Shown: positions 18,098 to 59,543, counted from the stretch's first letter. The stretch: 64,000 nucleotides of DNA from an uncultured Candidatus Saccharibacteria bacterium (GCA_964507855.1 CAZDQS010000004.1:14888-78887), one strand, 5' to 3'. Translations and numbers: made by a program. The notes: generated by a model not told the origin, from the letters alone.

Positions 18098-18144
18098 TTG
18101 AAAGTACCAAAGTAAAAACCGGAGGCTAGCTCCGGTCATTACTT

Positions 18145-19167: not shown

Positions 19168-19322
19168 TGGTGACCTCACGGGGAATACAGGTATAATCCG
19201 CCCGTTTGCCAGCACGCTGGCGGGGGATTATCGAACCGCCTGGGGTTCGATTCCGTTTCTCGGTGAGAAACTACCAATGAAAAACACCCACCTGAAGAGT
19301 GGGTGCCTTTCATTGGTGACCT
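19168..19322 (-). repeat. 155-bp direct repeat, tRNA-proximal copy
   Basis: See 18145-18299. Its last 9 nt (19314-19322) are the real 3' end of tRNA-Glu. Confidence 0.85.
19276..19313 (-). terminator. Rho-independent terminator directly after tRNA-Glu
   Basis: Minus strand: GGCACCCAC-TCTTCAG-GTGGGTG followed by TTTTTC. Confidence 0.7.
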
Positions 19323-19388
19323 CACGGGGAATCGAACCCCGATTGCCAGGATGAGAACCTGGTGTCCTAACCGTTAGACGATGAGGCC
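19314..19388 (-). tRNA. tRNA-Glu (anticodon CTC)
   Basis: Manual cloverleaf: GGCCTCA/TGAGGTC acceptor (one G.U), D arm GTCT-AACGGTTA-GGAC, anticodon arm CCAGG-TTCTCAT-CCTGG, T arm CGGGG-TTCGATT-CCCCG, encoded ACCA. Confidence 0.92.
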
Positions 19389-33464: not shown

Positions 33465-33489
33465 CGAATTTTCTTAATGCATAAAACCT

Positions 33490-33526
33490 GCCCTCCTGTT
33501 ATTGATTAAAAACAGGAGGGCTTTTA
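33490..33526 (+). terminator. Rho-independent terminator
   Basis: GCCCTCCTGTT-10 nt-AACAGGAGGGC followed by TTTTAT. The 3' arm doubles as the SD of the next ORF. Confidence 0.7.
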
Positions 33527-33527
33527 T

Positions 33528-33773
33528 ATGGGCAAGAAGGACGAAATAGGGCAGGCAGACGTACCACTTGTGTCAATGCAGCCGCTATGGGAGCTGGGCA
33601 TCACAGAAGTCACAGGGCATAATCTGGAAACCCAGGGAAGGAAAGAAGTAAACCGGCTACTCAAAGAAGGATGGCTGCTTTTGCACGTCTATACGTTAAA
33701 ATATCAAGAGGACAACATCTGGCGTGAGCGTCCTATGGCAATCCTTGGCCTCCCCGGCAAACACTCGGACTAG
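33528..33773 (+). CDS. hypothetical protein (81 aa)
   Basis: ORF with AGGAGG SD. Confidence 0.45.
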   Translation: MGKKDEIGQADVPLVSMQPLWELGITEVTGHNLETQGRKEVNRLLKEGWLLLHVYTLKYQEDNIWRERPMAILGLPGKHSD

Positions 33774-33819
33774 CACGACGTTTCGCTCCCTTACGCAAAC
33801 ATAACCAAAAGGAGGAACA

Positions 33820-34095
33820 ATGACGAGCGAGGTACAGAAAGATACCTTCGCTAATGATGCATGGCTTAATGATGCCATGAAGAAAGCGGCCGCGATTGCG
33901 GAACAACAAGGAAGAACAACCGAAGATGTGCTGCATAGCGCTCTCAGGCTGGGCCTGGAGGGTATACAGCTTGGCGAAGATGTCGTCGCGGTCATAGGAT
34001 TAGGCAGACAAGTGGCCGCCCGTACAGAAAGCTGGGCTGACGCGCTCGGTCTTTCCCCAGAAGCCTACGTCGAGAGACGACTTATGAACTCATGA
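33820..34095 (+). CDS. hypothetical protein (91 aa)
   Basis: ORF with AAAGGAGG SD 5 nt upstream of the ATG. Confidence 0.5.
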   Translation: MTSEVQKDTFANDAWLNDAMKKAAAIAEQQGRTTEDVLHSALRLGLEGIQLGEDVVAVIGLGRQVAARTESWADALGLSPEAYVERRLMNS

Positions 34096-34157
34096 CAACT
34101 GTACAAAATACGAACAGTCATTGTGCCTAAACTCATGGCTCGAAAATTACATAAAGG

Positions 34158-34182
34158 CACGGCACCACAGCCGTGTTTTTAT
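34158..34182 (+). terminator. Rho-independent terminator
   Basis: CACGGC-ACCACA-GCCGTG followed by TTTTTAT. Confidence 0.65.
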
Positions 34183-34851
34183 ATGGATGACAGTGAGTAG
34201 GCAAGCATGGAAAAAATTACGCAGAGCATGTAGGAAAAACTATAAAAATAGCAGCCCAGACCGGCAGCAGAGCACATGAAAGCAAATATAGACTATATGT
34301 CGCACAATGTATATTTTGCGACTCTATATTGTAGATTAAAGATGATAACTCATACGTCCCCTGCAGGGGAGTAATCCGCCGTTTGCGCGTATTATCGCGC
34401 ATAACTCGCTCCTCGCAGTGTACGCGTCATGTTTGCATTACCACTCCATGATGCCGCCATCAAGTACTTGTGCATTGGCGTCCAGTACGCACTGTGAGAA
34501 TTGCAACATTGCCAGAGTTTTCCACATGTGAAAACTTGCATTATTTGACTTTTCACGTTTTTGTAACTTTATTATATATTTCCCCTGCCTCTCACTCTTT
34601 TCCCCGTTTTTGACTTTTGCCCTATTGCATATTGTTATATAGTTTTTTGCCACCCGACCCTGTACTTCCGTATATGAACAATTTACGAACATCTAGGGGA
34701 GAAGCGGGGACGAAAGAGCTTAGCGTGGCTTTGTTGGTACAGACGTTGATACAGCCTTATCGCAGCAAACTATATGGTTACCAAAGGCACGAGCACTATT
34801 GCCGCAAACAGAAAGCAGAGCTGGCTTGCCCTTCCCTCGCCGAGAGATAGG

Positions 34852-35763
34852 CTACTTATAGTAAGCGCGTTCATGGACGCGCACGTCGATATATTCAGCT
34901 GGCAGTTTGCCTTCAGCTTGCAGCCGCTGCTGGACCGCAAAGAGAGTGCCTGCCTGCTGGCGAGCATCGCCAAGCATGTCGAACTTTATGTAGTACTGCA
35001 GCCCTTCAAGTTTGACATGCAGCTCGCTAGCAACAGCGGGTAAGGAAAGTGAGCTGATTGTTAAACCCTTATTACTAAACTGTCTGCTAATCTCACGGAT
35101 AAATTTTACGTCGCTAGCTGGCAACACAGCCCGGCCGGCCTCAAGCTCAACACCGGTGACGTCCTCTACGATCGGCAGGTTACTTTTATCAAGCCGCACG
35201 ATTTTGGAGACATCCGCAATAGCCACGCCTTGTTCATCCACCACAAAGCCGCCTTGCTGGCTGGTCAGGATTAATGCGGGCGCTTTTGGTGCAATATGTA
35301 TCACTGGCCGACGGCCCATGAGAGGCAAAGACACTTCCGCGGTCGCAAGTTCCGGAAACTGCCCCTTGAGCTCACGCGCTACCTTCTGCCGATCAATCGT
35401 TAGCTTATTGTAGTTGAGAAGCGACCCAGAAATTATCGTGCGGGCCGCCTCTTGGTAAACTCCGGCCTCACGATACAGTGGCACTACTGACGTACTGCTG
35501 ACTTGGATAACTTTAGGGCTGGGATCAACGCCAAGCACATACAGGAAACAGATAGCGATAGCCGCTGCAGCGAGAATCGACGGCGTGTGGCGCACCCACC
35601 AGCCGCGTGGGCGACGCTTCTGCGCGAATGCTTCAGTATTGCGCGCTCCCCTTCCTTCACCATCCAGACCGCTTGAGTAGTACGAGAATACATTACTCGG
35701 CCGCTGTGGAATAACCGGCCGACTGCGGGCGGACTGCTTGTTACCCTTCCCCCATCTCATCAC
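34852..35763 (-). CDS. ftsQ: cell division protein FtsQ/DivIB (POTRA domain)
   Basis: Basic N-terminus, single TM (ILAAAAIAICFLYVLGV), POTRA-like region; position directly after murG in the dcw cluster. Confidence 0.8.
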   Translation of the reverse strand: MMRWGKGNKQSARSRPVIPQRPSNVFSYYSSGLDGEGRGARNTEAFAQKRRPRGWWVRHTPSILAAAAIAICFLYVLGVDPSPKVIQVSSTSVVPLYREAGVYQEAARTIISGSLLNYNKLTIDRQKVARELKGQFPELATAEVSLPLMGRRPVIHIAPKAPALILTSQQGGFVVDEQGVAIADVSKIVRLDKSNLPIVEDVTGVELEAGRAVLPASDVKFIREISRQFSNKGLTISSLSLPAVASELHVKLEGLQYYIKFDMLGDARQQAGTLFAVQQRLQAEGKLPAEYIDVRVHERAYYK

Positions 35764-41425: not shown

Positions 41426-41745
41426 AGATGCCTTTTGTTTTTGTTTTTGTTTTGGTCCAGTGGTGAGCTTTTGATGGCTCACCACTGGGCTGGTCGCATA
41501 CTACAGTACTTTTACTCGTACCTTGTATGCCCGGGAGCTGCTTTTTACCTGGATAGGCATGGAGCTCTCCTTTGTTTTTTAGTTCTTAGCAATGCAGCTG
41601 GATGCGATACAAGGAAGAAGCGAAGCCCGCACCGAGCTGTACATGAGGTACAGCGAGGGAGGACTAGAGCTTCTGACGCAGTAGCGCGCCAGCAGTCCTG
41701 GCAAGCTTTCGGGCTTTGCCCGAAAATTGACAGGACGGTGCATTG

Positions 41746-42648
41746 TTAAGGTTTTTGTTTTGCTGCGGCCCGAAGCTTAGCGCTCCGTGCTCGCGGATTA
41801 AAAACTATTTCCTTACTATCGCCGCTGACAGGACTCTTAGTGAGTATCCGAAGCTCGGCATCATAGCGGTCCCCGCCGTGCTCGGCAAAGAACTGTTTGA
41901 CAATACGATCTTCCAAGCTATGGAAGCTGATTATTGCCAACCTGCCCCCTGGCGCAAGCAATTCAAGCCACAGTGGCAATGCCTGCTCCAACTGGCCCAG
42001 CTCGTCGTTGACGGCAATCCGAAGCGCCTGGAAGACACGGGTCGCTGGATGAATCTTGTGCTTCCCTGTCCTTGGCGGCCGGACGGCTGCAGCGATAATA
42101 TGCGCAAGTTCCGTGGTCGTAGATATTGGTCGGTGCTCAATAATTGCAGCGGCAATACGTTTCGCGTGAGGATCTTCGCCGTAGCGGCGGAATATGTCCA
42201 CCAGTTCGGCTTCACCATACGTGTTGACGATGTGCTCGGCAGTCAATTGCTGCCGGTTATCCATCCGCATATCGAGCGGCCCTTCCTGGGAAAAGGAAAA
42301 ACCACGGTCTGCATTGTCAAGGTGCGGTGACGACACGCCCAAATCGGCCAGGATAAGATCGAAGCGGTTCCCTTCTCCGACAAGTTGCTTGGCAGCATCC
42401 AGATAATGCATATGCACTATCCGCACGCCAGTGCCCGCGAACTTATCGGCCAACACTTTGACCGCTTGCTCGTCCCGATCAACCAGGACAGCGCCTTCGC
42501 TGTTTTTTGTACGCGCCAACACTTCAGAAGCGTGCCCACCGTAACCGGCCGTCGCATCGAGGTACGTTTCACCTCTTTGCGGGTCCAGGTACTGTAACAC
42601 TTCTTCTAGTAGTACCGGCACATGATATGGTTGTGACTGGTTTACCAT
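41746..42648 (-). CDS. rsmH: 16S rRNA (cytosine1402-N4)-methyltransferase
   Basis: HVPVLLEEV, DATAGYGGHA, DLGVSSPHLD, SFHSLEDRIVK motifs. Confidence 0.93.
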   Translation of the reverse strand: MVNQSQPYHVPVLLEEVLQYLDPQRGETYLDATAGYGGHASEVLARTKNSEGAVLVDRDEQAVKVLADKFAGTGVRIVHMHYLDAAKQLVGEGNRFDLILADLGVSSPHLDNADRGFSFSQEGPLDMRMDNRQQLTAEHIVNTYGEAELVDIFRRYGEDPHAKRIAAAIIEHRPISTTTELAHIIAAAVRPPRTGKHKIHPATRVFQALRIAVNDELGQLEQALPLWLELLAPGGRLAIISFHSLEDRIVKQFFAEHGGDRYDAELRILTKSPVSGDSKEIVFNPRARSAKLRAAAKQKP

Positions 42649-43168
42649 CCTACTAAGGATAGCAAACCCTTTCTTTTTGTTTTGGTGAATCTTGCTTTTT
42701 GTTTTTGTTTTTGTTTTGGCAAGGTCACCTAACCAGCAGTCAACTTTTTGTTTTTTGGAATGTTTTTGTTTTTGTTTATATCCGGTGAGGCGCCGGATAT
42801 GGATATCCTAGGGGCGAATGGTGAAGATCTTACGAGAGGCTTAATGATAAGCCTAATCTTCGCCGGCCCGCAGGATAAAAGTTTGAGAGACTTTGTGTGA
42901 GGTGGAGTTTTGGGAGGTGTTTTGTAGTGGAAGGTACAAAGGTGTTTTTATGTGGTGACTTCGATCCACATGTTGACTGCCGATTAGCTAACCTCGCATG
43001 GCTTACGAGACACCCATTCTGGGTTTCTCGTCGCGCCGGGCAGTCGACTGAATCGTCTGCTCGGGCTGCTCTTCCCGGCCTGTGGACGGGGAAAGCTTCA
43101 CCCGTTCCGGGCACAAATCGTGCCTTGTGGTGCTAATCGGTTTTGCTTGATTGTTAAAGAACTGCCCG

Positions 43169-48237: not shown

Positions 48238-48848
48238 CGCTCTTTCTTAGGCGGCATGTAGGTGCCTTCTTGAAGTTCTTCGAGCATTTTGTCCTTACGT
48301 TTTTGGCGTGTTTCTTCTTGTTTGGCCTGCTCTATCCATTGCACCCAACCTTTCTGCTGGTAGTACGGCCGGGCCTTGTAGGCTTCCAATTGGCCATTTT
48401 CCCTGAGGAATGACTCATATTCGTGCGGGACGTCGAATGTCCGCGAACCGGGCTTTGGCGCCCCAAAGTCCACCTTCTTGCCGGTCTTATTGTTAGCAAC
48501 CGCCTGCTTAACCAGCCTGATAATTAGCTCCTCGGGAATCTCCTGCCCTTCGCGGAACTTCATCGTACGCTTGGCTTTGCTCTCTGTATCTGGCCCCTCC
48601 TCCCACGTCCCCTTTGGGACGTCAAGCAGCACCCCTTGCGGGAAGCTGAAGTGCACCCATTCTGTGGCGCAAAATAACCATGTCACGCCACCGTTGTGTT
48701 CAAAATACGGCGTGCCCCACTTTATTTCCTCGGTGATGTCCGGATCGGCCTTGTGCACAAGCTCGCGCAATTTCCGCACCACGGCCGCCTGCCACGGCTT
48801 ATCCAAACCTTTGATATAATCGTCTACTTTCGGGTTCATGAACCTCAT
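48234..48848 (-). CDS. DUF1801 (YdhG-like) plus YdeI/OmpD-associated domain protein
   Basis: VDDYIKGLDKPWQAAVVRKLRELV...IKWGTPYF (DUF1801). C-terminal FLRENGQLEAYKARPYYQQKGWVQWI (YdeI-like). Start trimmed so it does not run into repeat R1. Confidence 0.75.
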   Translation of the reverse strand: MRFMNPKVDDYIKGLDKPWQAAVVRKLRELVHKADPDITEEIKWGTPYFEHNGGVTWLFCATEWVHFSFPQGVLLDVPKGTWEEGPDTESKAKRTMKFREGQEIPEELIIRLVKQAVANNKTGKKVDFGAPKPGSRTFDVPHEYESFLRENGQLEAYKARPYYQQKGWVQWIEQAKQEETRQKRKDKMLEELQEGTYMPPKKER

Positions 48849-48877
48849 AATACACCGCTTGGCTAGGCGATATCCAT

Positions 48878-49116
48878 CCATGGCTAGCTTGCCCAGGCTC
48901 TGCCGGCTCCTGATACGGCGAGTGTCAAAACCACAATTTCTGCGAAGGACGTGTTTGACGGCTTTTCCTTCCTTGAAGAATTAAGAAAGAAAAGCCGGAG
49001 TTGTCCGAAGCATTGTGGCTTTTGACGACGAGCGTATCAAGAGCTGGTAGCTGCCTGCCATTTCTTTGCCTCCTTTCTTGTTGGCACAAGAAAGGAGGTC
49101 GCTCCAGCCGGAACGG
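48878..49116 (+). repeat. family-2 structured intergenic repeat, copy R1 (239 nt)
   Basis: Aligns end to end with 56129-56367. Nested helices include CTGCCGGCTC/GAGCTGGTAG, GTCAAAACCACAAT/ATTGTGGCTTTTGAC and CCTCCTTTCTTG/CAAGAAAGGAGG. Confidence 0.8.
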
Positions 49117-49136
49117 CTGAGTGAACAGTGACTTCT

Positions 49137-50666
49137 TTATTTTTTTCTCGTAACCAATGCGTCTTCACCGAAATGCTTCTTAATCCGGGCGCGGATCGAG
49201 CCTGGGTGCCGGCCAAACTTTTCGGTGAGCTCCTTAACCGTGACACTCTTACCGTCACTAAATAGCCGCACCAGCCGGGCGTCCTCTTCTTCTTTCCATG
49301 GCCGGTAGGCGTTTGGGTACTTTTCGCGCATCTTTTCCAGTTTTTCGTTCCATGTACCTGCTGACTTCTTGGATGGCTTTTCTTTGGCTCGTTTCTCAGC
49401 AAGCTCACGCAAATGCGCAAATTTCTTGCTGGCTGCTCCTGAACGTGCCCTCAACTGTTCATCAATCAGAAGCGCATCCGGGCTGACGCGCAACGCCATT
49501 TGGTTGATGCCTGCCAAGCTGAGCGTATCAAGGCTACGCACTCGGCTCAGCGCCACGTAGCCCATGCCCTCGACGAACGCCCGGCGCAGGTCTATCCGCG
49601 CAGCATCCAACGTCATTCCCTGGCTTTTGTGCACGGTAATAGCCCATGCCAACCGGAGCGGAATTTGCGTAAGACCTGCGCGCTTTTTGTCACCGTCACG
49701 CAGCTCCCAGGTCTCAGGTGTTATGACAATTTTGCGGCCGTTTTTAAGCTCAACTATCGGATAGTCGGTCGCCTTCTCGAACCCAACCACAACACCCAAA
49801 GAGCCGTTCACATACTTTTTCTCGGGATTATTGCGGATACACATCACCAGTGCGCCTTCTTTCAGCACCAACACATCTTGCGCCAAGCAAGACCGACTCA
49901 AACTCTCGACATAATTCGCCTGGCCGGTGGTTGCCATCTCGTACACGTGCTCTTTGCCTTTCAGTTGCGTCAGGCGCTGATTGTTGATGGCGTCAACATC
50001 CACGTTTGTTGTGTGGAGCTCTGTTACATCCTCGAACGGATCATGCGCCTGCTGGCGCGACAATAGCAACTCGGCATGACGGCGGCGCACATCCCCTGCC
50101 CGCAATGCATTCAAGATATCAAGATACGCATCGTCATTCTGCCGGTGCTGCTCGCTCAAGTAGCACACGACCGGATCCAGCTCCTGCCACACCGATGAGC
50201 CAACCACAAAGCCACCCTGTTTGCCTTCGCTTCTATTAATGGGAGGTAATTGAAAAAAATCGCCGCACAAGATAACTTGCATACCCCCGAATGGCGCGCC
50301 CCCACCACGCACCCTGCGCGCAACTTCGTCCACCATATCCAAGCGGTAATCGTGCAGCATAGAGATCTCATCGATGATAAGTACGTCTGTTTTTTCGATA
50401 GTTTCCCGCCGGCCTTTCTGCATATCATCATGGAAATACTTCGGCAGCGAATCATGGATGCCGATACCGCTCCAGGAATGGATAGTATTGCCGCCCAGGT
50501 GTGTCGCGGCCAGACCGGTCGTGGCCGTCACAGAGACGTGCTTGCCCGACCGCTTGGCGCGGCGGATAAACTCGTTGAGAACGTACGTCTTGCCCGAACC
50601 GGCCGGCCCGGTCAACAGCACGCTTTCCCCTGCCCCCATGATTTCTAACGCCAGCGCTTGGTCCAT
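49137..50666 (-). CDS. PIF1/RecD-like AAA ATPase DNA helicase with C-terminal HTH-like tail
   Basis: LTGPAGSGKTYVL (Walker A), IIDEISML (Walker B), AITVHKSQG helicase motif. Confidence 0.85.
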   Translation of the reverse strand: MDQALALEIMGAGESVLLTGPAGSGKTYVLNEFIRRAKRSGKHVSVTATTGLAATHLGGNTIHSWSGIGIHDSLPKYFHDDMQKGRRETIEKTDVLIIDEISMLHDYRLDMVDEVARRVRGGGAPFGGMQVILCGDFFQLPPINRSEGKQGGFVVGSSVWQELDPVVCYLSEQHRQNDDAYLDILNALRAGDVRRRHAELLLSRQQAHDPFEDVTELHTTNVDVDAINNQRLTQLKGKEHVYEMATTGQANYVESLSRSCLAQDVLVLKEGALVMCIRNNPEKKYVNGSLGVVVGFEKATDYPIVELKNGRKIVITPETWELRDGDKKRAGLTQIPLRLAWAITVHKSQGMTLDAARIDLRRAFVEGMGYVALSRVRSLDTLSLAGINQMALRVSPDALLIDEQLRARSGAASKKFAHLRELAEKRAKEKPSKKSAGTWNEKLEKMREKYPNAYRPWKEEEDARLVRLFSDGKSVTVKELTEKFGRHPGSIRARIKKHFGEDALVTRKK

Positions 50667-50733
50667 AAGTAGTATTAGTATAGCGAATTACGCCTAATAA
50701 TGATTTTTAGAGTTAGCAAAAAATTCAGACTTT

Positions 50734-51315
50734 CTAGCCGGCCTTCGGCCGGACCTGCTTGCCCGTGGCGGGGTTGGTCAGGGCCAGCTCTTTCTTCTTG
50801 AGGTCCAGGCGTACAATGTATTCCTCGAACTGCTTCAATAGGCCAGAATATTGCCAGTTTGGCGTCATGATGTGCAGCAGCTTCCCCTCCTGCTCCAGGT
50901 ATTCGGCCAAGCTGTAAAAGTCCCCGTCACCTGAGATAATAATCGCTTTGTCATAATTTGGCATCTCTTTGACAGCCCAAAGGACCAGTTCAGCGTCCAC
51001 ATTGCCTTTGATCAACTTCTTTTCTTCTGGCTTTTCAGGCTGCTCATCAGCCTCACTCTCTGGTTGCGGCACCTTGACGCTATCTGCCGTCGGCTTGAGC
51101 ACAATCAGATAGCCCGCGTCATGCAGCTTGATATACATGTCCTCGTATTCCGGCACATGGCCGATAAACATATAGGCATGCGTTACGTTGTAGTGGTCTT
51201 TTAAAAATTTGCGAAACTTGCGCCAGTCCATCTTCCAGCCCATCTTTTGGATGCCGAGGTTCAGGTTCTGGTTGTCAATGAAGGCATAGTTGCCCTTCTT
51301 TTTGCGATATCTCAT
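50734..51315 (-). CDS. NYN (LabA-like) domain protein
   Basis: YAFIDNQNLNLG N-terminus and IISGDGDF motif typical of the NYN/LabA fold. Confidence 0.8.
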   Translation of the reverse strand: MRYRKKKGNYAFIDNQNLNLGIQKMGWKMDWRKFRKFLKDHYNVTHAYMFIGHVPEYEDMYIKLHDAGYLIVLKPTADSVKVPQPESEADEQPEKPEEKKLIKGNVDAELVLWAVKEMPNYDKAIIISGDGDFYSLAEYLEQEGKLLHIMTPNWQYSGLLKQFEEYIVRLDLKKKELALTNPATGKQVRPKAG

Positions 51316-51613
51316 TGGTTAATCATATCACCTACGCGCTGCTCCTGAGGATGTAAAAAATTGGGGGCGCTACATGTGGCGGCTACACCGTAGGACTTGA
51401 CACCATTTTACATAAGCGATAAGCTAGTCTTTGTGTGTTTTTTCCGAGGTGGAGAATCCGCACATTTTACCCCTGTAACCAATTAACAGAATTAATCGAG
51501 GGCTTCGCCCGGATCACGAGGCGCATTTCCGAAAAATCGGAAATGCCGGTCATTCGCGAAGCCCTTATATAATTAATTACCCGGCAGGGGGGTATAAGGA
51601 GGTGTAACCCAGT

Positions 51614-52255
51614 ATGCGATTAGTCGCTGCAGTGGCGGCAGTATTTGCTGTTGCCGCAATTTCGGTAGGCGGTACGCAAACCGCTCATGCCGAATCTCAA
51701 CAAACATCAGATAAAGAACCGGTCATGGTCACCGTTGAGCGGGGGGATTCGCTCAGCAAAATTGGCAAGCGATATGACACTACATACCAAAGAATTTTCT
51801 ACGCAAATACCGAGATCGAGAACCCGGACTTGATTTTTCCGGGACAAGAATTACGAATACCTGACGCAGAAGAAGAGCTAGAAGAACGCCCGATACCTTC
51901 AAGCGCTCAAGCTCCAACCCGCGTAACCAAGGCGACCGCGCCACGTCGCGCCACAGCACCAAGAGCTACCACACGAGTACGCACACCAGCTCCCGCCCCG
52001 GCAGCGACCGTGCCGAGCGGTGGTGTCTGGGACAGCCTGGCACAGTGTGAATCTGGCGGAAACTGGTCAATCAGCACCGGCAACGGCTACTACGGCGGCC
52101 TGCAATTCAGCTTGTCTAGCTGGCGTGCCGTTGGCGGCCAAGGCTACCCACACCAGGCAAGCAAGGCCGAGCAGATTGCCCGCGCCCAAGCACTCCAAGC
52201 CATCCAGGGCTGGGGCGCATGGCCTGCCTGTACAGCCAAACTTGGCATTCGGTAA
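51614..52255 (+). CDS. secreted LysM + resuscitation-promoting-factor (Rpf) transglycosylase-like protein
   Basis: Signal peptide; LysM (VTVERGDSLSKIGKRY...FPGQELRIP); Rpf core WDSLAQCESGGNWSISTGNGYYGGLQFSLSSW...GWGAWPAC. Confidence 0.88.
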   Translation: MRLVAAVAAVFAVAAISVGGTQTAHAESQQTSDKEPVMVTVERGDSLSKIGKRYDTTYQRIFYANTEIENPDLIFPGQELRIPDAEEELEERPIPSSAQAPTRVTKATAPRRATAPRATTRVRTPAPAPAATVPSGGVWDSLAQCESGGNWSISTGNGYYGGLQFSLSSWRAVGGQGYPHQASKAEQIARAQALQAIQGWGAWPACTAKLGIR

Positions 52256-52305
52256 GTTTACCGGAGCGTAAAACAAAGACCCCGGAGCGTCCCCCGCCCC
52301 GGGGT

Positions 52306-52917
52306 TTATTTAATGCCCTCGATCCTCCGGAGCAGACGTGCATTTCGTTCTAAGAATGCTTGGATATCTGCTGCCAAGGGCGTGGTATCTCCGTCATGAT
52401 AGGCATCAGCAGCTCGTGAAATATAAATAGTGTCCCTGTGCAGCTCAAAATCATACGCTTGGCAAAAGTCCACAAAATATGCCATGTCCGCCGGGTCAAA
52501 AATCTGCAGCAATTCCTGTTCCTGCTTCGGCCCGCAGTACATCTGGAAGTAATTTGGAAAATCCCCTTCCAGATCAAGCTTTCTCAACCCCTGCATGGAA
52601 ATAAGCGGACCGAGCTTGCTCTTACTGCCGATTGCCACAAGATGCAGCCGCGTGTCATGGTGCAATTGCACGTAAATTATTACCCGCCCGTCACCAGCCG
52701 CAATGAGGTTATACGGGAAGCCAGCGCTCTCACCTTTGTGCAAGCTTGTCAGCTTGCCGGAAGTTAATAACCCCCTAGAAGATATGATGGGCCCGGGCCT
52801 TTCGTGCTTTGCTCCCCTCGGCAAGATGCCTTTGTGCCTCGCCACACCATAAAGCACTGCCCCAATCAGAAAAACAAAATATAACTTGCTAAACATAGGT
52901 AAATCATAACACTGCAT
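52306..52917 (-). CDS. hypothetical membrane-anchored protein (203 aa)
   Basis: ORF; N-terminal hydrophobic helix; abuts the upstream ORF with no gap. Confidence 0.5.
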   Translation of the reverse strand: MQCYDLPMFSKLYFVFLIGAVLYGVARHKGILPRGAKHERPGPIISSRGLLTSGKLTSLHKGESAGFPYNLIAAGDGRVIIYVQLHHDTRLHLVAIGSKSKLGPLISMQGLRKLDLEGDFPNYFQMYCGPKQEQELLQIFDPADMAYFVDFCQAYDFELHRDTIYISRAADAYHDGDTTPLAADIQAFLERNARLLRRIEGIK

Positions 52918-53367
52918 CTACTGGAGAAGAAAAGCCACCCGGTCGAATAGCAAGCCACAGTCGCCGGCACTAGCCTCCAACTGATTGCCTGTCTCGCGCT
53001 TCAAAAGGCGCGTTCCCCGCTCAACCTGATCCATGAACTCATCAGAGACTGCCACCTCTTGTCGTGGCTCTGGAATGGATGGGCATGCTCGTATACTTTG
53101 CCCAAACTCGACCAGCTGCTCGTCACTTGTTCTGAATATGTAATCATGGTTGACTGATGAATTCACCGTCGAATCATTATGCGCAAGCTCACGATACCGA
53201 AGCACCATCTTATTTCCGCCCGGGAAATACCTAAGCATACCCGATAAGCAGATTGTCAGCGGGGGCCATTCCAAGAAATCAAGATCCACGTATATCCGCT
53301 CAATCTTCGCGTATAGACGCGAACCGTTATCCAGCACACGGACACGCGCGTCAGGCTCTTCGGCCAA
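52918..53367 (-). CDS. hypothetical protein (149 aa)
   Basis: ORF contiguous with 52306-52917 (operon-like). Confidence 0.5.
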   Translation of the reverse strand: MAEEPDARVRVLDNGSRLYAKIERIYVDLDFLEWPPLTICLSGMLRYFPGGNKMVLRYRELAHNDSTVNSSVNHDYIFRTSDEQLVEFGQSIRACPSIPEPRQEVAVSDEFMDQVERGTRLLKRETGNQLEASAGDCGLLFDRVAFLLQ

Positions 53368-53473
53368 ACCCAGAAACCCAGAAATGCTTCTTTCAAGACA
53401 TCAAAATCATCATATGTCGGCAGGCCCATGTCAGGACGCTCGATTTGTCTCATATTAATTTCAATAGTAACAG

Positions 53474-53704
53474 TTATTTTACAAACTGAATAACTTTTGT
53501 TCTCGTAGTGTGGCCGCGGATGATTGTTATGCACGATTTTGGCACGTCGAAATACTCTGCCAAAAGCTTAATGACAGCCGCGTTCGCCACACCGTCAATT
53601 GCTCGTTCGCGTACGTAAATAACCACCTCCCCATCCGGCTGCAGCTCAACAAGCGGGCCCTTCTTGCTCCCCGGTTTTACCCGTACCGACACACGCTGTT
53701 TCAT
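53474..53704 (-). CDS. DUF167 (YggU) family protein
   Basis: VRVKPGSKKGPL...YVRERAIDGVANAAVIKLLAEYFDVPKSCITIIRGHTTRTK matches the YggU pattern. Confidence 0.8.
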   Translation of the reverse strand: MKQRVSVRVKPGSKKGPLVELQPDGEVVIYVRERAIDGVANAAVIKLLAEYFDVPKSCITIIRGHTTRTKVIQFVK

Positions 53705-53744
53705 GCCATTATCATAGCAGTCCGATTACGGTAGAATTAAGCAT

Positions 53745-54035
53745 ATGAGTAAGGACAACAAATACTGGTTCAAGCGTCGCCGCTACGGCTGGGGCTACAT
53801 CCCCGTCACCTGGCAAGGCTGGGCGCTCATCATCTTCTTTATCATCTCAACTATCGCGGCCACGCGCCTACTGCCACCGGAATCCGAAGATCCAACAAGG
53901 AGCGAAATCATCCGCTTTAGCCTAGCCATGGCAGGGCTTGCTGTGGTACTGGTATTCGCGAGTATCGCCAAAGGCCCCAAACCCCGCTGGCGCTGGGGCA
54001 AAAAACCAACCGACAACCCAGAAGAAGATTTCTAG
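53745..54035 (+). CDS. small membrane protein (96 aa)
   Basis: Two hydrophobic helices; ORF only. Confidence 0.45.
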   Translation: MSKDNKYWFKRRRYGWGYIPVTWQGWALIIFFIISTIAATRLLPPESEDPTRSEIIRFSLAMAGLAVVLVFASIAKGPKPRWRWGKKPTDNPEEDF

Positions 54036-54081
54036 CCACCCCTATCTCGAGGCTACGAAAGGCCTATGTGTTCTCGGTAAT

Positions 54082-54645
54082 TTAACGCTTGCCGACCAAG
54101 CGGCCCATCAGGCCTTTGACGAGATTTTCACTATCTAATTGCGGGTCGTAAATACTAACCGGTTGCCCTGCAGCTATCAATTTGTCCTGAAAAGGCCGTA
54201 CGAAAGACCAGCCAGGATCGGGATAAACCTCTTCGTCAACCGTCACCACGCCACTTTTTCTGATAGTCTCGAAACTATGCCCTTTACCGTATTCCGCAAA
54301 TATACCATCAATTACCCACCCTTCGGTATGTTTGATGATCTCCAGCGACCTTCTTTTGCTGCGAGCTGCCCTCAGTTCTCCTTGCTGTGTGTAAGTGTAT
54401 TTTGTAGGACGTACCACTGAATCTGGCTCAACGCCACACAGAATGTCTAAACGCCTCATTATACGGACGACATCAACCGCTCTCCTGCCCGTGTGTTCTG
54501 CCTCTGTCAAACGAGGCCACAGTAAAGCCAACAAGTCTCTTGCCTCGCCCTGTCTTAGCGCAGCTTGTTCTTGCAGTAGGGCGGTTCTTTCTTCCTCCTG
54601 TCCACCTGCACCAAGTCGCCTCTCACCGGGTGTCGCGTACATCAT
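54082..54645 (-). CDS. hypothetical protein (187 aa)
   Basis: ORF only. Confidence 0.5.
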   Translation of the reverse strand: MMYATPGERRLGAGGQEEERTALLQEQAALRQGEARDLLALLWPRLTEAEHTGRRAVDVVRIMRRLDILCGVEPDSVVRPTKYTYTQQGELRAARSKRRSLEIIKHTEGWVIDGIFAEYGKGHSFETIRKSGVVTVDEEVYPDPGWSFVRPFQDKLIAAGQPVSIYDPQLDSENLVKGLMGRLVGKR

Positions 54646-54718
54646 AGGAGTCTCCTTCGTTTTATATTGAAGACTATATACCTATTTTGACATAAATACC
54701 AAATCGCCTTATAACAAT

Positions 54719-55624
54719 TTACTCGTTATTGTAGGCGGCTTCGAGTTCGGCGATGTTCATCTTTTTCATTGGTAAGAATGCCTTGACCAGGCGGGCTATT
54801 TGCTCAGGCGTTCCGTTACTCATCATGTCGTTGAACGAAGTCGGCGAAACCTGCCACGACACGCCGTACTTGTCCTTGAGCCAACCACACTGTTCGGCCT
54901 CGGGCACGGCTGAAAGCTTCTCCCAATAGTAATCAATTTCTTCTTGCGTATCGCAATTAATGAGCAACGATATCGCCTCGTTAAAGGTAAACGGCTGCTC
55001 CACGCCGGAATCCATGGCCGCAAGCCACTGCCCCTCGAGCATAAAGTCAGCAAACATCAGCGACCCCTTCTTGGCCGGGCCGGTGTCTTCCGGATACTTC
55101 GCAACAGTGCCGAGCTTTGCATCCTTGAATACAGAAAGATAGAAGTTTATCGCTTCTTCGGCTTGATTGGTATGCTCACCGGCAAACATGAGGGATGGAA
55201 TGATAAACGGCCGCTCTTCACCCTCCGGGTCAGTCAGCATCAGCTGCCATGTCACACCATACTTGTCCTTGACCCAGCCATAGCGTTTGCTGAAAGGATA
55301 CTCCTGCAGTGGCATCAGCGTCTCGCCGCCCTCGCTCAATGTGCCCCACAGCTCGTCCAGATGCTCCCTTGCTTGATCGTCACGTGACGGGTCAAAGTTC
55401 AGGATGAAGGATATTGAAGGATTGAGTTTAAACACCGGCCCGGCACTGATTGCCATAAAGTCATGGCCGCTGAGATTAAATGTCACCACGTCGCTGTCAC
55501 CGCCCGGTGTATCAGACAGCGTCACTACGCTATCAATCTTAGAATCTGGAAACGCCGAGACATAAAACTCCGCCGCTTCCTTAGCTTCCTTATCAAACCA
55601 CAAATGCGGAACAATCTTTTGCAT
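54719..55624 (-). CDS. tandem VOC/PhnB-like (3-demethylubiquinone-9 3-methyltransferase domain) protein
   Basis: MQKIVPHLWFDKEAKEAAEFYVSAFP plus repeated DKYGVxWQ motifs, indicating two PhnB-like halves. Confidence 0.85.
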   Translation of the reverse strand: MQKIVPHLWFDKEAKEAAEFYVSAFPDSKIDSVVTLSDTPGGDSDVVTFNLSGHDFMAISAGPVFKLNPSISFILNFDPSRDDQAREHLDELWGTLSEGGETLMPLQEYPFSKRYGWVKDKYGVTWQLMLTDPEGEERPFIIPSLMFAGEHTNQAEEAINFYLSVFKDAKLGTVAKYPEDTGPAKKGSLMFADFMLEGQWLAAMDSGVEQPFTFNEAISLLINCDTQEEIDYYWEKLSAVPEAEQCGWLKDKYGVSWQVSPTSFNDMMSNGTPEQIARLVKAFLPMKKMNIAELEAAYNNE

Positions 55625-55638
55625 GACACCCCCTAAAG

Positions 55639-56094
55639 TTACGTTTCTACTCGCCCCTCAATAATAGCACTGAGTTGGGTTGCTAATTTTTCTGGATTTT
55701 CGTAGCTCAAATGCCGAGCAAGATTATTACCCACTACACCTTGATTAAAATAAGAAAGTCTTCCGTCACCTTCCGTTGCAATAAACACGTGCTTTCCCTT
55801 CCCGAGCGCATACCCGATTTCAAACTGAACTCCGGCCGAGGGCTGGTCATGGACGAGCGCGAGCAAAATATCGGAGTTGTCTATTTCTTCCAAATCTTTC
55901 TTCACGCCAATATCCGGCGGTGAGTTAGTAATAATCCAACCTTCGTGCTCCACCGCACAAAAGACTTCTAGATGCCCTGACTTTCTTAGAGCTTCCAGTA
56001 TTTCTTCGATAACTTTGCGAAATACCGGCTTAACTTCGCCCGTATCGTAATCCACTTGATTCGAAAAAGATGTCGCTAAGAATACTTTACTCAT
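55639..56094 (-). CDS. nucleoside 2-deoxyribosyltransferase-like protein
   Basis: SDILLALVHDQPSAGVQFEIGYALGKGKHV matches the family core. Start set at MSKVF because the longer ORF reads through repeat R2. Confidence 0.65.
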   Translation of the reverse strand: MSKVFLATSFSNQVDYDTGEVKPVFRKVIEEILEALRKSGHLEVFCAVEHEGWIITNSPPDIGVKKDLEEIDNSDILLALVHDQPSAGVQFEIGYALGKGKHVFIATEGDGRLSYFNQGVVGNNLARHLSYENPEKLATQLSAIIEGRVET

Positions 56095-56128
56095 ATCCCT
56101 CAATAATAGCATTAACAGCTGCGGAGTT

Positions 56129-56367
56129 CCTTGGCTGATTTGGCCAGGCTCTTCCAGCTCCTGATGGACGAGTGTCAAAGCGACAATTTCTGCGCAGGAC
56201 GTGTTTGACGGCTTTTCCTTCATTAGAAAATTAGAAAAGAAAAGCCGGAGTTGTCCGGAGCATTGTCGCCTTTGACGACGAGGCCATAACGAGCTGGAAG
56301 CTGCCTGTTGCTTCTTTGCATACTTTCTTGTCAACACAAGAAAGTATGTTGGGACAAGCCGGAACGG
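56129..56367 (+). repeat. family-2 structured intergenic repeat, copy R2 (239 nt)
   Basis: Helices CTTCCAGCTC/GAGCTGGAAG, GTCAAAGCGACAAT/ATTGTCGCCTTTGAC, GGCTTTTC/GAAAAGCC and CATACTTTCTTG/CAAGAAAGTATG. Confidence 0.8.
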
Positions 56368-56378
56368 ATTGGCCGAAA

Positions 56379-57686
56379 CTATAAAGCTATCTTGCTTTTG
56401 AGTTCTTCAACCTTCACACGCTCTTGCTCAGTAGTATCGCGATTACGAACCGTAACCGTTCCGTCTTCCAAAGTATCAAAATCAATCGTCACGCAATACG
56501 GCGTGCCGATTTCGTCCTGTCGGCGATATCTTTTACCTATGTTGCCATTGTCATCCCACATGACCGCGCCAAACTCGTCCTTCAGCATCTTGTAGACTTC
56601 TCTGGCCTTTTCCACCAGCTCGGGCTTGTTCTTCAGCAGCGGCGAAACCGCAACTTTAACTGGGGCTAGGTGCGCGGGCAACTTGAGATACACGCGCTTT
56701 TCGCCATTAACTTCATCTTCCGTGTAGGCGCTGACCAGTACGGCCATGAGAGCGCGCTCCACGCCGAATGACGGCTCGATGACATGCGGCACAAACGGCT
56801 CGCCGCCGTCCTTAGGCCTATACTCCATGTTTTTGCCGGATGACTTCTGGATGTTCATAAGATCAAAGTCCGTGCGGTACGCCAGGCCCAAGAGTTCCTT
56901 GCGGCCGATTGGATAATCAAACTCAAAGTCAATTGTGCGCTTGCTGTAATGCGCGCGCTCCTCGTCCGGCACTTCCAGCTCGTGAACCTTGTCCTTTGGA
57001 AGCCCGATGGCTTCCAGGTAGGCGTAAATATCCTTTACCCAACTCTCAAAAGATTCTTTCCACTTGTCCGGATGGACAAAGTACTCGATCTCCATCTGCT
57101 CGAACTCGCGTGAGCGGAAGACAAAATCCCGCGGAGAGATTTCGTTACGGAAGGCCTTACCAATCTGGGCGATACCAAACGGCATGTCAGGATAAAAGCT
57201 ATCTACGACGTTCTTGAAGTTCGTAAAAATACCCTGTGCAGTCTCCGGCCGTAGATAACTAACCGAAGCTTCGTCATCAACCGGCCCGACATTTGTCTTG
57301 AACATCATATTGAACTGGCGGGCTTCGCTAAACGTATCGGTCTTGCCGCACGTTGGACATTTGCTGGTGTCAATTTGGTCTTCGCGGAAGCGGGATTTGC
57401 AGTTGGAGCACTCCACCAGCGGATCGGTGAACGTATCCACGTGGCCGCTGGCCTGCCAGACTTTCTGATTCATCAAAATTGCCGCGTCCACGCCATACAT
57501 GTCTTCCCTGTCGTCAACAAACATCTTCCACCACAGGTCCATGATGTTGCGCTTCAAGGCAACGCCAAGCGGGCCGTAGTCCCACGTACCACTTAAGCCG
57601 CCGTAAATCTCGGAGCCTTGGTAAATAAACCCGCGCCGCTTACACAAGCTAACAATATCTTCTAGAGAAACTTCATCTTTTGCCAT
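56379..57686 (-). CDS. glyQS: glycine--tRNA ligase (homodimeric class II type)
   Basis: RGFIYQGSEIYGGLSGTWDYGPLG, FRNEISPR (motif 2), EPSFGVERA (motif 3); C-terminal anticodon-binding domain. Confidence 0.95.
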   Translation of the reverse strand: MAKDEVSLEDIVSLCKRRGFIYQGSEIYGGLSGTWDYGPLGVALKRNIMDLWWKMFVDDREDMYGVDAAILMNQKVWQASGHVDTFTDPLVECSNCKSRFREDQIDTSKCPTCGKTDTFSEARQFNMMFKTNVGPVDDEASVSYLRPETAQGIFTNFKNVVDSFYPDMPFGIAQIGKAFRNEISPRDFVFRSREFEQMEIEYFVHPDKWKESFESWVKDIYAYLEAIGLPKDKVHELEVPDEERAHYSKRTIDFEFDYPIGRKELLGLAYRTDFDLMNIQKSSGKNMEYRPKDGGEPFVPHVIEPSFGVERALMAVLVSAYTEDEVNGEKRVYLKLPAHLAPVKVAVSPLLKNKPELVEKAREVYKMLKDEFGAVMWDDNGNIGKRYRRQDEIGTPYCVTIDFDTLEDGTVTVRNRDTTEQERVKVEELKSKIAL

Positions 57687-57886
57687 ATATGACCTTACTT
57701 ACTGTATCTGTTTCAGCTTACACTAGCCACCTTCGGCCTGCAAATGCCATACCGCTCATTCATCGTACCTTTCAGGTACGCCTCACTCACCTGATAGCAT
57801 TTTCGGCTCGAACTTTGGCTAGTTCACTAATAAAACCGATACAGGAAGCAAGGACTGCAAATTATATCTGGAATTGATACAAAAAC

Positions 57887-58579
57887 CTAGGCTCGCAAAA
57901 ACTGCTGGGCCATGGACCGCACCAGCTGGCTTCCCCGCTGGAGCACGCTGTCGATATCCTTCACCTGGCCCAAAACTTCCGGCGAATCAATCCCGAACAC
58001 CAGGCGCAGGAACTTTATGTGATTGGCGGTGTACATCCCCTGCTCATGCGGAATGAACGCCATGTTCTCCAGATCAAACGTGTATAACGTACCGACATCG
58101 AGCTTCTGACCCGTAGCGTCGGTGCGGAGGTTCGGCTGGTGTCCAGCAAGTTTGAGCAGCTGCGCGTCAAACCAAGCAGTCAAAAGTTCCGGCGGTAAAT
58201 TGCTATCATCAAGCCCCTCAAACGTAGCGCTGAGCAGATCAAAATATTCCCGGCCGGCAGCATCTTCCGTTGATTTGTTGAGGCGCTTGATAAGCTCATA
58301 GCCGAGCATCGTCCGGCTAATATCTTTCACAATGTTGCCGAAGTGACGGTGCAGTCTCGTAGATACGAGCGTACCAATCTCGCCCTTGCCCGGGATAAAG
58401 CTTAGTTCCGAAATGCTGAATAATTCAATCCCGCCCGCCAGCTTGCTTGTGCTCTTTCGCACACCCTTGGCCATAAGCCGCAGCTTGCCGTGGTCGGGCG
58501 TTAAGACGGTCAAAATACGGTCCGCCTCGCCGAAGTCCGTGCGGAACAGGATGATACCGTGGGTAAGGATTTGTTTCAT
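57887..58579 (-). CDS. recO: DNA repair protein RecO
   Basis: GIILFRTDFGEADRILTVLTPDHGKLRLMAKGVRKSTSKL (OB-fold N-terminus). Start at MKQIL, with a 4-nt overlap on the upstream regulator stop. Confidence 0.88.
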   Translation of the reverse strand: MKQILTHGIILFRTDFGEADRILTVLTPDHGKLRLMAKGVRKSTSKLAGGIELFSISELSFIPGKGEIGTLVSTRLHRHFGNIVKDISRTMLGYELIKRLNKSTEDAAGREYFDLLSATFEGLDDSNLPPELLTAWFDAQLLKLAGHQPNLRTDATGQKLDVGTLYTFDLENMAFIPHEQGMYTANHIKFLRLVFGIDSPEVLGQVKDIDSVLQRGSQLVRSMAQQFLRA

Positions 58580-58962
58580 TGTGACGCTGGAGCCAACACA
58601 CTTTCGACGCACTGCACCAGCCGCCGCAACTTCGTGGTGGGCTTGTATAAATACTGCTTTACCCCGAGTTCATGCCACAACGTCGTATCAAGCCCGGGGT
58701 TGCTGGCGGGCAAACCGGTCAGTAGGATGACTGGAACCTCTTGCCAGTCAGCATAGGAGCGAAACTCATAGAGGAACTCGATGCCATTATGCCCAGGAAG
58801 CTGCATTTCCAGCACCACCACGTCCGGTGTGGCACTATCAGCAACATGAATAGCAGCTTGCGCTGACGCAGCGTGCATCACCTCGTGGCCCCCACCCTCT
58901 AAAGCGGCTGTATACGTATGCGCTAGTACAGGATCCGGTTCAACTAACAACACCCTCGTCAT
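58576..58962 (-). CDS. single-domain response regulator (CheY-like receiver)
   Basis: VLLVEPD, DVVVLEMQLPGHNGIEF, LLTG and K in LYKP receiver motifs. Confidence 0.85.
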   Translation of the reverse strand: MTRVLLVEPDPVLAHTYTAALEGGGHEVMHAASAQAAIHVADSATPDVVVLEMQLPGHNGIEFLYEFRSYADWQEVPVILLTGLPASNPGLDTTLWHELGVKQYLYKPTTKLRRLVQCVESVLAPASQ

Positions 58963-59004
58963 ATACCTCTAACTTTACCATGCGCTTCATTATTTCACCG
59001 CCGC

Positions 59005-59242
59005 GCTTCGCTTGGCCGGTGACCTACTTTCTTGTGTCAACAAGAAAGCTAGGCAAAGAAATGACGGGCAGCTGCAGCCACGTAATGCATCTGTTGGTAA
59101 AAAAGTAGCTTGCCTCGGCAACTCACCACCTATTGTGCCACCGGCACAATAGGTGCCTCAGACACTCCGAGGAAGCCAAGCGCGCTACTTTATTACAACA
59201 TCTGCTCAGGTGGCTCGCAGAGCCCGAACAAACCAGCCATGG
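59005..59242 (-). repeat. family-2 structured repeat, copy R3 (238 nt, inverted orientation, diverged interior)
   Basis: Reverse complement starts CCATGGCTGGTTTGTTCGGGCTCTGCGAGCC and ends with the hairpin CCTAGCTTTCTTG/CAAGAAAGTAGG. It keeps the family helices with different sequences (CTGCGAGCC/GGCTGCAG). Confidence 0.7.
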
Positions 59243-59289
59243 AGTGCCTAGCAACACAGCTTCTATAGGATTAGCCGTCTTGGCGGCAT

Positions 59290-59526
59290 CCTTGGCTGGT
59301 TCCCCAGGCTCTGAAAAATCGATGCTAAAAGCCGCTGTTTGGGCGAATCAAGCCGGCACGCGGTCCTGCCCACTCATATAGAAAATTTGGGCGGGGCCGA
59401 CAGGATGGAGTTGTGCCAGCGCGCCTCAAACAGCGAGATTTTGGCAATCGTGCTTTTTCAGTTGCCTGTCGTTTTTTGTCCAACTTTTTGTCGACACAAA
59501 AAGTTGTGCGGGGCTGGCCCGAAGGG
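59290..59526 (+). repeat. family-2 structured repeat, copy R4 (237 nt, diverged)
   Basis: Starts CCTTGGCTGGTTCCCCAGGCTCTG. Helices CTGAAAAA/TTTTTCAG, GCTGTTTGGGCG/CGCCTCAAACAGC and CAACTTTTTGTC/GACACAAAAAGTTG; same length and architecture as R1 and R2. Confidence 0.7.
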
Positions 59527-59543
59527 ACAGACCGAAAAATGCT

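Follow-up and report, generated by a model that had tools for sequence, protein, structure and literature searches.

The window analysed here is a 64,000-nucleotide stretch of the genome of an uncultured Candidatus Saccharibacteria bacterium (GCA_964507855.1, CAZDQS010000004.1:14888-78887; positions are counted from its first letter), and it carries, within 11 kb, four intergenic copies of a highly structured repeat. An initial annotation delimited these copies as R1 at 48878-49116 (+), R2 at 56129-56367 (+), R3 at 59005-59242 (-), and R4 at 59290-59526 (+), and took them to represent either a novel multicopy class of structured non-coding RNA (ncRNA) or an element similar to miniature inverted-repeat transposable elements (MITEs). 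Sequence reading and alignment confirmed four homologous copies at these positions, in both orientations (R1, R2, and R4 on the plus strand, R3 on the minus strand), and neither nhmmer nor a covariance model detected a fifth copy in the 64 kb. We consider it fairly probable that these are four paralogous genes of an uncatalogued family of structured ncRNAs, with a core of ~235 nt that reaches up to ~270 nt with the leader; the family is dispersed and, probably, mobile. The cores and the upstream elements of R1 are located as follows.

48894-49127, plus strand: R1 core RNA, from the first base of the 5-bp helix P2 to the 3' GAAC; covariance model score, 70.9 bits
56145-56379, plus strand: R2 core RNA; 71.3 bits
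58993-59226, minus strand: R3 core RNA, inverted; 66.4 bits
59305-59539, plus strand: R4 core RNA, head-to-head with R3; 55.8 bits
48852-48893, plus strand: conserved leader of R1, upstream of P2
About 48845-48850, plus strand: -10-like box of R1, CATAAT

The conserved unit reaches ~11-13 nt further in the 3' direction than first delimited and is terminated by a GAA(A)-type motif that ends at 49127 in R1, 56379 in R2, 58993 on the minus strand in R3, and 59539 in R4; past the 3' GAAA, the sequence varies between copies and is that of the flanking genes. In the window copies, a conserved leader, TCC(A/T)TGGCT, is located 5' of P2. R1 and R2 are 84% identical across a 181-nt ungapped core; R3 and R4 resemble this pair in the ends and architecture only. 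All four copies adopt one common fold, with folding z-scores of -9.1 (R1), -6.7 (R2), -6.9 (R3), and -5.4 (R4) against dinucleotide shuffles. Motif scans returned 3-4 sites for each of three conserved motifs compared to 0.15-0.65 expected from shuffles (the palindromic hairpin motif gave 6 matches because both strands were counted). The helices quoted in the initial annotation are all present, namely, the outer CTGCCGGCTC/GAGCTGGTAG and the middle GTCAAAACCACAAT/ATTGTGGCTTTTGAC, each with its counterparts, and the 3' hairpin, and the two G.U pairs of the R1 outer helix are real. The recurrent loops proposed along with these helices are more restricted: the GAA/GAA internal loop is exact in R1 and not in the other copies, and the A-rich apical loop AGAAAATT is present in R2 and R4 only. 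P2, the pseudoknot and triplex of the 3' domain, and the small 3'-terminal hairpin were absent from that description.

Pattern scans and a covariance model identified 28 further members at 21 other loci in public metagenome-assembled genomes (MAGs) and metagenomes; additional copies, on which the initial annotation had made the family depend, are thus present in other genomes. In a collection of species-representative genomes, the 3'-motif pattern was found at 11 loci, mostly, in Saccharibacteria/Saccharimonadales MAGs, with one in a 1.77-Mb Balneolaceae contig and one in a Gastranaerophilales MAG; in a metagenome collection, it was found at 16 loci. A covariance model of the 3' domain recovered all pattern-found loci and five more-diverged copies, and the total is 32 distinct 3' domains, including the four in the window. 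The spread is patchy, over three phyla (Saccharibacteria, Melainabacteria, and Balneolota). No viral contigs with the exact 3'-domain pattern were found, and blastn searches with R3 found no copies in INPHARED phages or PLSDB plasmids. Among the 4227 models of Rfam 15, only two tRNAs matched in the window at the gathering threshold, and only tRNAs and one unrelated cobalamin riboswitch matched in the loci L001-L011; a permissive search (E up to 10) of the repeat region and five more loci gave only chance matches of the miRNA/snoRNA hairpin type. The elements showed no Rfam family match in any of the 16 loci tested, in line with the initial failure to assign the repeat to a known riboswitch, ribozyme, or large ncRNA. 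The literature searched, including searches with the hairpin sequences, contained no description of this RNA, and a description in other literature is possible.

The 5-bp helix P2 (CAGGC/GCCUG) is present in all 31 members tested and encloses a rod of 130-190 nt (~160 nt in the window copies). It is the innermost conserved helix and covaries family-wide, as CAGGC/GCCUG, CGGGC/GCCCG, and CCGGC/GCCGG.

48894-48898 with 49053-49057, plus strand: P2 of R1 (CAGGC with GCCTG), helix 1 of the full-length covariation set
56145-56149 with 56303-56307, plus strand: P2 of R2
59222-59226 with 59065-59069, minus strand: P2 of R3 (CGGGC/GCCCG)
59305-59309 with 59464-59468, plus strand: P2 of R4
48937-48949, plus strand: 5' side of the distal internal loop of R1 (GGAC-GUGUUU-GA-C), facing the 3' side GGAGUUGUCC at 48997-49006

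The rod helices are almost wholly different between subfamilies, and two or three internal-loop or junction motifs remain conserved. One is a recurrent asymmetric loop ~10 bp above P2, in which a GA element faces AAU-NN-UG or AUCAAG. Another is a distal motif that occurs in two forms, either GGAC-UGUUU-GA / GA-GUU-CC with a variable hairpin cap, which is how many members present the distal loop seen in R1, or a three-way junction with CCGAC…GGAGUU. We considered whether the distal loop is a canonical k-turn and rejected this: tandem G.A pairs are present as required, but the bulge has 5 nt and, in most members, the flanking stem lacks Watson-Crick pairing, so that we left the motif as k-turn-like. 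Also rejected was an outer helix P1, predicted in R2-R4 between the GGCUGG leader and the 3' tail, which competes with the 3' hairpin and whose leader strand is absent in other genomes.

Downstream of P2 comes the 3' domain, in which three variable bases are followed by a U-rich linker (UUUCUUUG or UUUUUUG), a conserved hairpin with the core CUUUCUUGU-NNNC-ACAAGAAAG, a small variable hairpin, and GAAA.

49058-49060 with 49082-49084, plus strand: R1 pseudoknot, CCA with TGG of the hairpin loop
56308-56310 with 56332-56334, plus strand: R2 pseudoknot, TTG with CAA
59062-59064 with 59037-59039, minus strand: R3 pseudoknot, TCA with TGA
59469-59471 with 59492-59494, plus strand: R4 pseudoknot, TCG with CGA
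49061-49068, plus strand: U-rich linker of R1 (UUUCUUUG), the proposed third strand; equivalents at 56311-56318 (R2), 59054-59061 (R3), and 59472-59478 (R4, UUUUUUG)
49069-49098, plus strand: conserved hairpin of R1 (CCUCCUUUCUUGU-UGGC-ACAAGAAAGGAGG); equivalents at 56319-56348 (R2), about 59021-59053 (R3), and 59479-59508 (R4)
49099-49127, plus strand: variable 3'-terminal hairpin of R1, closed by CGCUC/GAGUG and followed by GAAC; the corresponding tails end at 56379 (R2), 58993 (R3), and 59539 (R4)

In 28 of the 32 distinct 3' domains, the triplet that follows P2 is the reverse complement of the first three bases of the hairpin loop, in seven combinations (TTG/CAA, TCA/TGA, CCA/TGG, TCG/CGA, CTG/CAG, TGA/TCA, and ATG/CAT); the pattern used to recruit members kept these positions as N. 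In an alignment of 25 sequences of the 3' domain, the pseudoknot helix is 97% paired, with three of its four pairs changing on both sides and none on one side only, and the conserved hairpin (helix 2) is 96% paired, with 7 of 13 pairs changing on both sides; among 12 full-length sequences, the pseudoknot helix (helix 6) is 100% paired and all three pairs change on both sides. The prediction that the post-P2 triplet and the downstream hairpin loop form an H-type pseudoknot is thus well supported, the loop and the upstream strand pairing with covariation as expected of this fold. Because the pairing strand continues straight from the 3' strand of P2, the pseudoknot should stack on P2.

The linker spans from the junction of P2 and the pseudoknot to the base of the hairpin and so would run parallel to the purine strand of the hairpin. 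Position i of the linker matches position i+1 of the purine strand, with U facing A-U pairs and C facing a lone G-C pair: a G at position 5 of the purine strand is always accompanied by a C at position 4 of the linker, and an all-A run goes with an all-U linker. The second copy of locus L018 (L018b) has lost 2 bp from the top of the stem, and here the linker C has moved from position 4 to 2 and the purine-strand G from 5 to 3; this shift in the same direction fits a parallel Hoogsteen strand and not an antiparallel helix between linker and purine strand. We take it as probable, judging from these sequence changes, that the linker forms a major-groove triplex of U.A-U and C+.G-C triples along the conserved hairpin. 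All three covariation states seen are in the parallel register, and the number of independent events is small.

Two departures from the common layout of the 3' domain were observed. In the Gastranaerophilales-type copies at L003 1976-2026 and L006 1519-1569, the loop CGGC complements GCCG within the 3' strand of P2 and not the post-P2 triplet; P2 and the pseudoknot would compete in these copies, which could be a switch or a coincidence. At L016 5816-6140 (minus strand), a miniature rod-less variant lies head-to-head with a full-length copy and retains a short CCAGACUCUGG hairpin, the U-rich linker, a U/A-rich hairpin, and a GCGC…GAUGAAAC tail, suggesting that the essential core of the RNA is its 3' domain.

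H-type pseudoknots with a major-groove U.A-U triplex are found in telomerase RNA and in the SAM-II/SAM-V and preQ1-II riboswitches, and triple helices also occur in the MALAT1/PAN ENE elements. The proposed module shares with these RNAs a U-rich strand that runs alongside the purine strand of a U-A-rich helix in parallel orientation, with MALAT1 a C+.G-C triple that breaks the U.A-U run, and with telomerase RNA and SAM-II the provision of the third strand by loop 1 of the pseudoknot. Unlike in these RNAs, it is the 3' domain of a ~235-nt RNA, stacked on the helix that closes the rod, and stem 1 is crossed by a loop of only 1-2 nt; neither sequences nor models of the telomerase, SAM-II/SAM-V, preQ1-II, or MALAT1/PAN ENE families match, and the window family comes without riboswitch context, an A-rich 3' tail, or a reverse transcriptase. 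That triplex pseudoknots form the ligand pockets of the SAM-II, SAM-V, and preQ1-II riboswitches and that a gene in the same direction follows R3 and a few other copies could suggest a riboswitch-like leader, and chance open reading frames (ORFs) of 25-60 codons in some copies could suggest the mRNA of a small protein or a type I toxin. However, the downstream genes are unrelated to each other and most copies are convergent with the neighbour, Rfam models of SAM-II, SAM-V, preQ1-II, and preQ1-III gave no match at E up to 10, and no ORF is conserved in position or frame on either strand, several members having no ORF on either strand at all. We give such a leader or mRNA only a very slim chance.

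Covariation across the whole RNA is extensive, as the initial annotation had proposed. In the 12 full-length sequences, changes on both sides are seen in 42 of the 58 pairs, with 91% of the cells paired, far above the controls: none of 500 column shuffles reached any of five covariation measures, and slid controls gave 13-22 pairs with changes on both sides. A comparison of paired positions between R1 and R2 alone shows five compensatory double changes, seven single changes that preserve pairing, and eight broken pairs, the last partly due to alignment error at the ends. Together with the lack of an Rfam match and the new members, this covariation supports the first of the two alternatives originally put forward, a novel multicopy class of structured ncRNA. 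Selection on the element-sense RNA, initially suggested by the two wobble pairs of R1, is also upheld: in 30 of 31 members, the rod folds more stably on the sense strand than on the opposite one, with a mean difference of 10 kcal/mol, G.U pairs number 127 on the sense strand vs 71 on the antisense strand, and the pyrimidine third strand is present, and the triplex hence possible, on the sense strand only. We favour the view, on these comparative grounds, that the functional molecule would be the RNA of the element-sense strand.

The long ORFs of the window change from mostly plus (about 19.9-33.5 kb) to mostly minus (34.9 kb onward) at 33464-34852, where one block converges on the other; of the four RNA copies, three are situated in the minus-strand block, though on the plus strand. 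The genes around the copies are ordinary, encoding a DUF1801 protein, a PIF1-type helicase, an NYN-domain protein, a nucleoside deoxyribosyltransferase-like protein, glycyl-tRNA synthetase (GlyRS), RecO, and a response regulator, and the best relatives of the GlyRS gene beside R2 are in Saccharimonadales MAGs. The 3' ends of R1, R2, and R4 are 9, 0, and 4 nt, respectively, from the stop codon of a convergent gene: the last base of R2 overlaps the stop codon of the GlyRS gene, and R4 ends 4 nt ahead of the stop codon of a gene for a 238-aa protein. R3 is directed toward the response-regulator gene, which starts at 58962. Of 22 other loci, ~14 are also convergent with the neighbour, and others are co-directional or located between divergent genes.

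Such tail-to-tail placement, along with BIME-like inverted pairs, is what would be expected of a REP/BIME-like element that acts in cis, as a 3' untranslated region, terminator, or insulator, on the opposite-strand mRNA of the convergent gene. This explanation appears highly improbable, given that, in 30 of 31 members, the antisense fold is the weaker one, the triplex depends on a pyrimidine linker that the sense strand provides, the antisense hairpins lack a following U-tract, and several copies have the next gene in the same direction or are flanked by divergent genes. The tight abutment to stop codons is expected in any case when an element of ~270 nt fills a gap that was formerly 0-40 nt.

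The block that holds R3 and R4 fills exactly the space from the 238-aa gene stop codon to the start codon of the response-regulator gene.

58963-59543, no strand assigned: 581-nt block containing the head-to-head copies R4 and R3 and a tail of 29 nt, in which there is a GAGG ribosome-binding site

Three relatives, with GlyRS 84-87% identical, keep the gene order XseA-XseB-…-238-aa gene-response regulator-RecO-…-GlyRS. In these, the 238-aa gene and the response-regulator gene overlap (ATGA) or sit 3 nt apart, and the next gene follows GlyRS directly, leaving no room for R2; the covariance model found no copy in L028 or L029, two of the three relatives. The sites of R2 and R3/R4 are thus empty in syntenic relatives, a presence/absence polymorphism of the kind shown by MITEs and other non-autonomous transposons. 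From the gene overlap in the relatives, we infer insertion rather than loss. Divergent head-to-head pairs recur (in the window, L008, L019, and L026) and, in L012, L016, and L018, divergent pairs enclose one or two accessory genes. Several public contigs end within a copy, as assemblers do at repeats. The second alternative of the initial annotation, element-like behaviour, is accordingly also supported, by the empty sites and by the contigs that end inside copies. The RNA genes are copy-number-variable cassettes in very short intergenic gaps, mostly, tail-to-tail and often in divergent pairs.

These properties invite the explanation that the repeat is a non-autonomous DNA transposon, either a MITE or a palindrome-associated transposable element (PATE) derived from IS200/IS605, whose hairpins act as single-stranded DNA or cruciforms, with the RNA incidental. 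Multiple copies in both orientations and in intergenic DNA only, the empty sites, the contig breaks within copies, the cargo genes sometimes flanked by inverted pairs, and an orientation mostly opposite to the flanking genes, expected of strand-specific insertion, would all fit. However, there are no terminal inverted repeats, target-site duplication, or similar end hairpins, and no transposase is encoded in the window or in the ORFs read beside copies; copies from the same genome are highly diverged, yet pairing is kept by compensatory change; the G.U excess and the energy asymmetry point to one RNA strand; and the pseudoknot covariation and the parallel-register linker serve nothing in a DNA hairpin. 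We therefore regard this explanation as unlikely.

Dispersed structured intergenic repeats are well known in bacteria (REP/BIME/REPIN, ERIC, Correia, BOX, RUP). The present family resembles these repeats in being multicopy and intergenic, in the occurrence of both orientations and inverted pairs, in the location at gene 3' ends, and in the variable presence; transcription as hairpins, a trait of those repeats, may be shared as well. Unlike these repeats, of which REP-type palindromic units measure 20-40 nt, the units are two to ten times longer, at ~235-270 nt, and have a complex fold with a conserved pseudoknot, triplex, and internal loops, the diverged copies of one genome carry compensatory changes, and neither terminal inverted repeats nor a RAYT (REP-associated tyrosine transposase) are present, with no Y1 (tyrosine, HUH-type) transposase in the 64 kb. 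Integron attC sites, imperfect palindromes of 60-140 nt beside cassette ORFs, differ as well, in size and fold; the window encodes no integrase, and the pseudoknot and triplex are RNA features.

Pfam scans of the 40 window ORFs detected no transposase, TnpB, IscB, Cas protein, reverse transcriptase, or integrase, and, in the other loci, the ORFs beside copies, read from the sequence without Pfam, are housekeeping or accessory genes, with no transposase. On the window scans, the idea of a cis-encoded partner was rejected. A gene for an NYN-domain protein (PIN-like RNase) is located in the window at 50734-51315 (minus strand), 1.6 kb from R1, and, in L004, 66 nt upstream of a copy. This gene was considered as a partner and rejected: relatives retain it without the RNA, and we accordingly take its proximity as coincidence.

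The scaffold of TnpB reRNA consists of stems, a triplex, and a pseudoknot (PMC11844463), and the 3' domain described here has the same kinds of module. The likeness to the TnpB reRNA/omega RNA and to Cas12 scaffolds extends to residence in mobile, multicopy DNA, and the copies vary in number like the insertion sequences that carry such RNAs. The family could then consist of scaffold or guide RNAs (omega RNA/reRNA of TnpB/IscB or Cas12 guides) for an RNA-guided protein encoded elsewhere. Against this, no TnpB, IscB, or Cas gene adjoins any of the ~32 copies (by Pfam in the window and by sequence reading at other loci), no recognisable guide, IS200/IS605 ends, or coding overlap is seen, and no Rfam match to HEARO or another catalogued family was obtained. 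Furthermore, no hypervariable unpaired segment like a guide was found, the unpaired parts being conserved and the variable parts paired, and the pseudoknot lies ~40 nt from the 3' end and not beside a guide. A guide RNA is, in our assessment, quite improbable.

Several orphan classes of large bacterial ncRNA are known, including raiA, HEARO, OLE, ROOL, and GOLLD, which are usually single-copy. The family shares with these classes a length of hundreds of nucleotides, an intricate structure with pseudoknots, strong covariation, and a patchy distribution. It differs in the lack of a model match, in at least four diverged paralogues within 11 kb, and in the insertion-like behaviour. To our knowledge, no described class unites all the traits seen here: a rod with a triplex pseudoknot stacked on P2, several diverged paralogues in a span of 11 kb, a presence in three phyla, and insertion between genes that overlap. 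We rate the family as new at the level of family or class, with building blocks that are known motifs.

With regard to transcription, an AT-rich stretch with a -10-like box lies upstream of P2 in each window copy (CATAAT in R1, AATAAT/TAATAG in R2, TATAGA in R3, and TATAGG in R4), and, in one metagenomic subfamily, ~75 nt upstream, including TATAAA…AATAGAC, are conserved along with the RNA. Independent transcription of the copies is plausible on these signals.

A number of observations weigh against interpreting the repeats as a mobile family of RNA genes. On the side of expression, a generic sigma-70 scan, which was uninformative, showed no canonical element-sense promoter upstream of the four copies, no intrinsic terminator follows the 3' end, and the P2 strands of the head-to-head pair in L008 are only 6 nt apart, which leaves little room for separate promoters. 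On the side of structure, the recruiting pattern fixes much of the 3' domain, so that conservation of the pattern-fixed bases is partly by construction; the triplex is derived from three covariation states, with the decisive register shift coming from a single sequence (L018b); and the geometry of the pseudoknot is tight, with a loop of only 4 nt and two invariant closing pairs, such that either these pairs open or the junction is unusual. On the side of mobility, the relatives with empty sites share only 84-87% GlyRS identity; the ends of single copies have no terminal inverted repeats, target-site duplication, or matching end hairpins, and the R3/R4 block shows only a shared GAAA(T/A)AATG 3' motif, without direct duplication. 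Neither a mobility mechanism, with no transposase in the window or in ORFs near copies, nor a partner protein was found.

The window contains additional repeats. A 155-nt direct repeat, 97% identical, occupies 18144-18298 and 19167-19321, next to tRNA-Glu(CTC) at 19314-19388 (minus strand), and each repeat includes ~20 nt identical to the 3' end of this tRNA; on the minus strand, the unit comprises a terminator-like hairpin, further hairpins, and the partial tRNA end, with a fold z-score of -5.9. The ~870 bp between the repeats contain one ORF, 18515-19147 (minus strand), with a type IV pilin-like N-terminal methylation motif, and the arrangement resembles the att-type duplication that would surround a small insertion at a tRNA gene. 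Direct repeats of ~145 nt, 82-92% identical (14896-15039 and 17044-17186), flank a gene for a Y-family (ImpB/MucB-type) DNA polymerase (15434-16810) and overlap a TylF-like methyltransferase ORF (16777-17622). Several copies of a T-rich TGTTTTTGTTTTTG-type repeat are found at 41429-42780, around and within the ORF 41746-42648 (minus strand).

If the four copies are indeed RNA genes, the pseudoknot, triplex, and P2 would form a single compact stack, with the 5' end tucked in and the 3' domain guarded, which may yield a nuclease-resistant RNA. The conserved loops could bind a protein encoded elsewhere, so that the RNA would act in trans as a ribonucleoprotein; this role as a nuclease-resistant, protein-binding RNA is one that we infer only. 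The AT-rich block with -10-like boxes that accompanies each copy would probably drive its own transcription, and the spread of the family may rely on a factor that is not encoded beside the RNA or on recombination. A bolder proposal, to which we assign a low probability, is that the RNA is the active component of a new mobile or RNA-guided system of Saccharibacteria and a few other lineages. In one possible version, the RNA gene would propagate itself, as a ribozyme or via an RNA intermediate, by analogy with the triplex pseudoknots of telomerase and retroelement RNAs; in another, it would belong, as the RNA subunit, to an unlinked ribonucleoprotein by which cassettes carrying promoters are placed between closely packed genes.

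Saccharibacteria have genomes of ~1 Mb with very little non-coding DNA. In such a genome, the upkeep of four or more RNA genes of ~250 nt comes at a cost, and this implies that they either have a strong function or follow an efficient selfish strategy. If confirmed, the family would be an additional class of large structured RNA, with a well-supported pseudoknot and a probable triple helix, in which structural conservation of the grade seen in ribozymes and riboswitches is joined to transposon-like copy-number dynamics. The triplex-pseudoknot module, with its in-register switching between C+.G-C and U.A-U, would provide a natural case for work on RNA triplexes, and the family raises a testable question, namely, whether a structured RNA gene can spread with no protein gene beside it.

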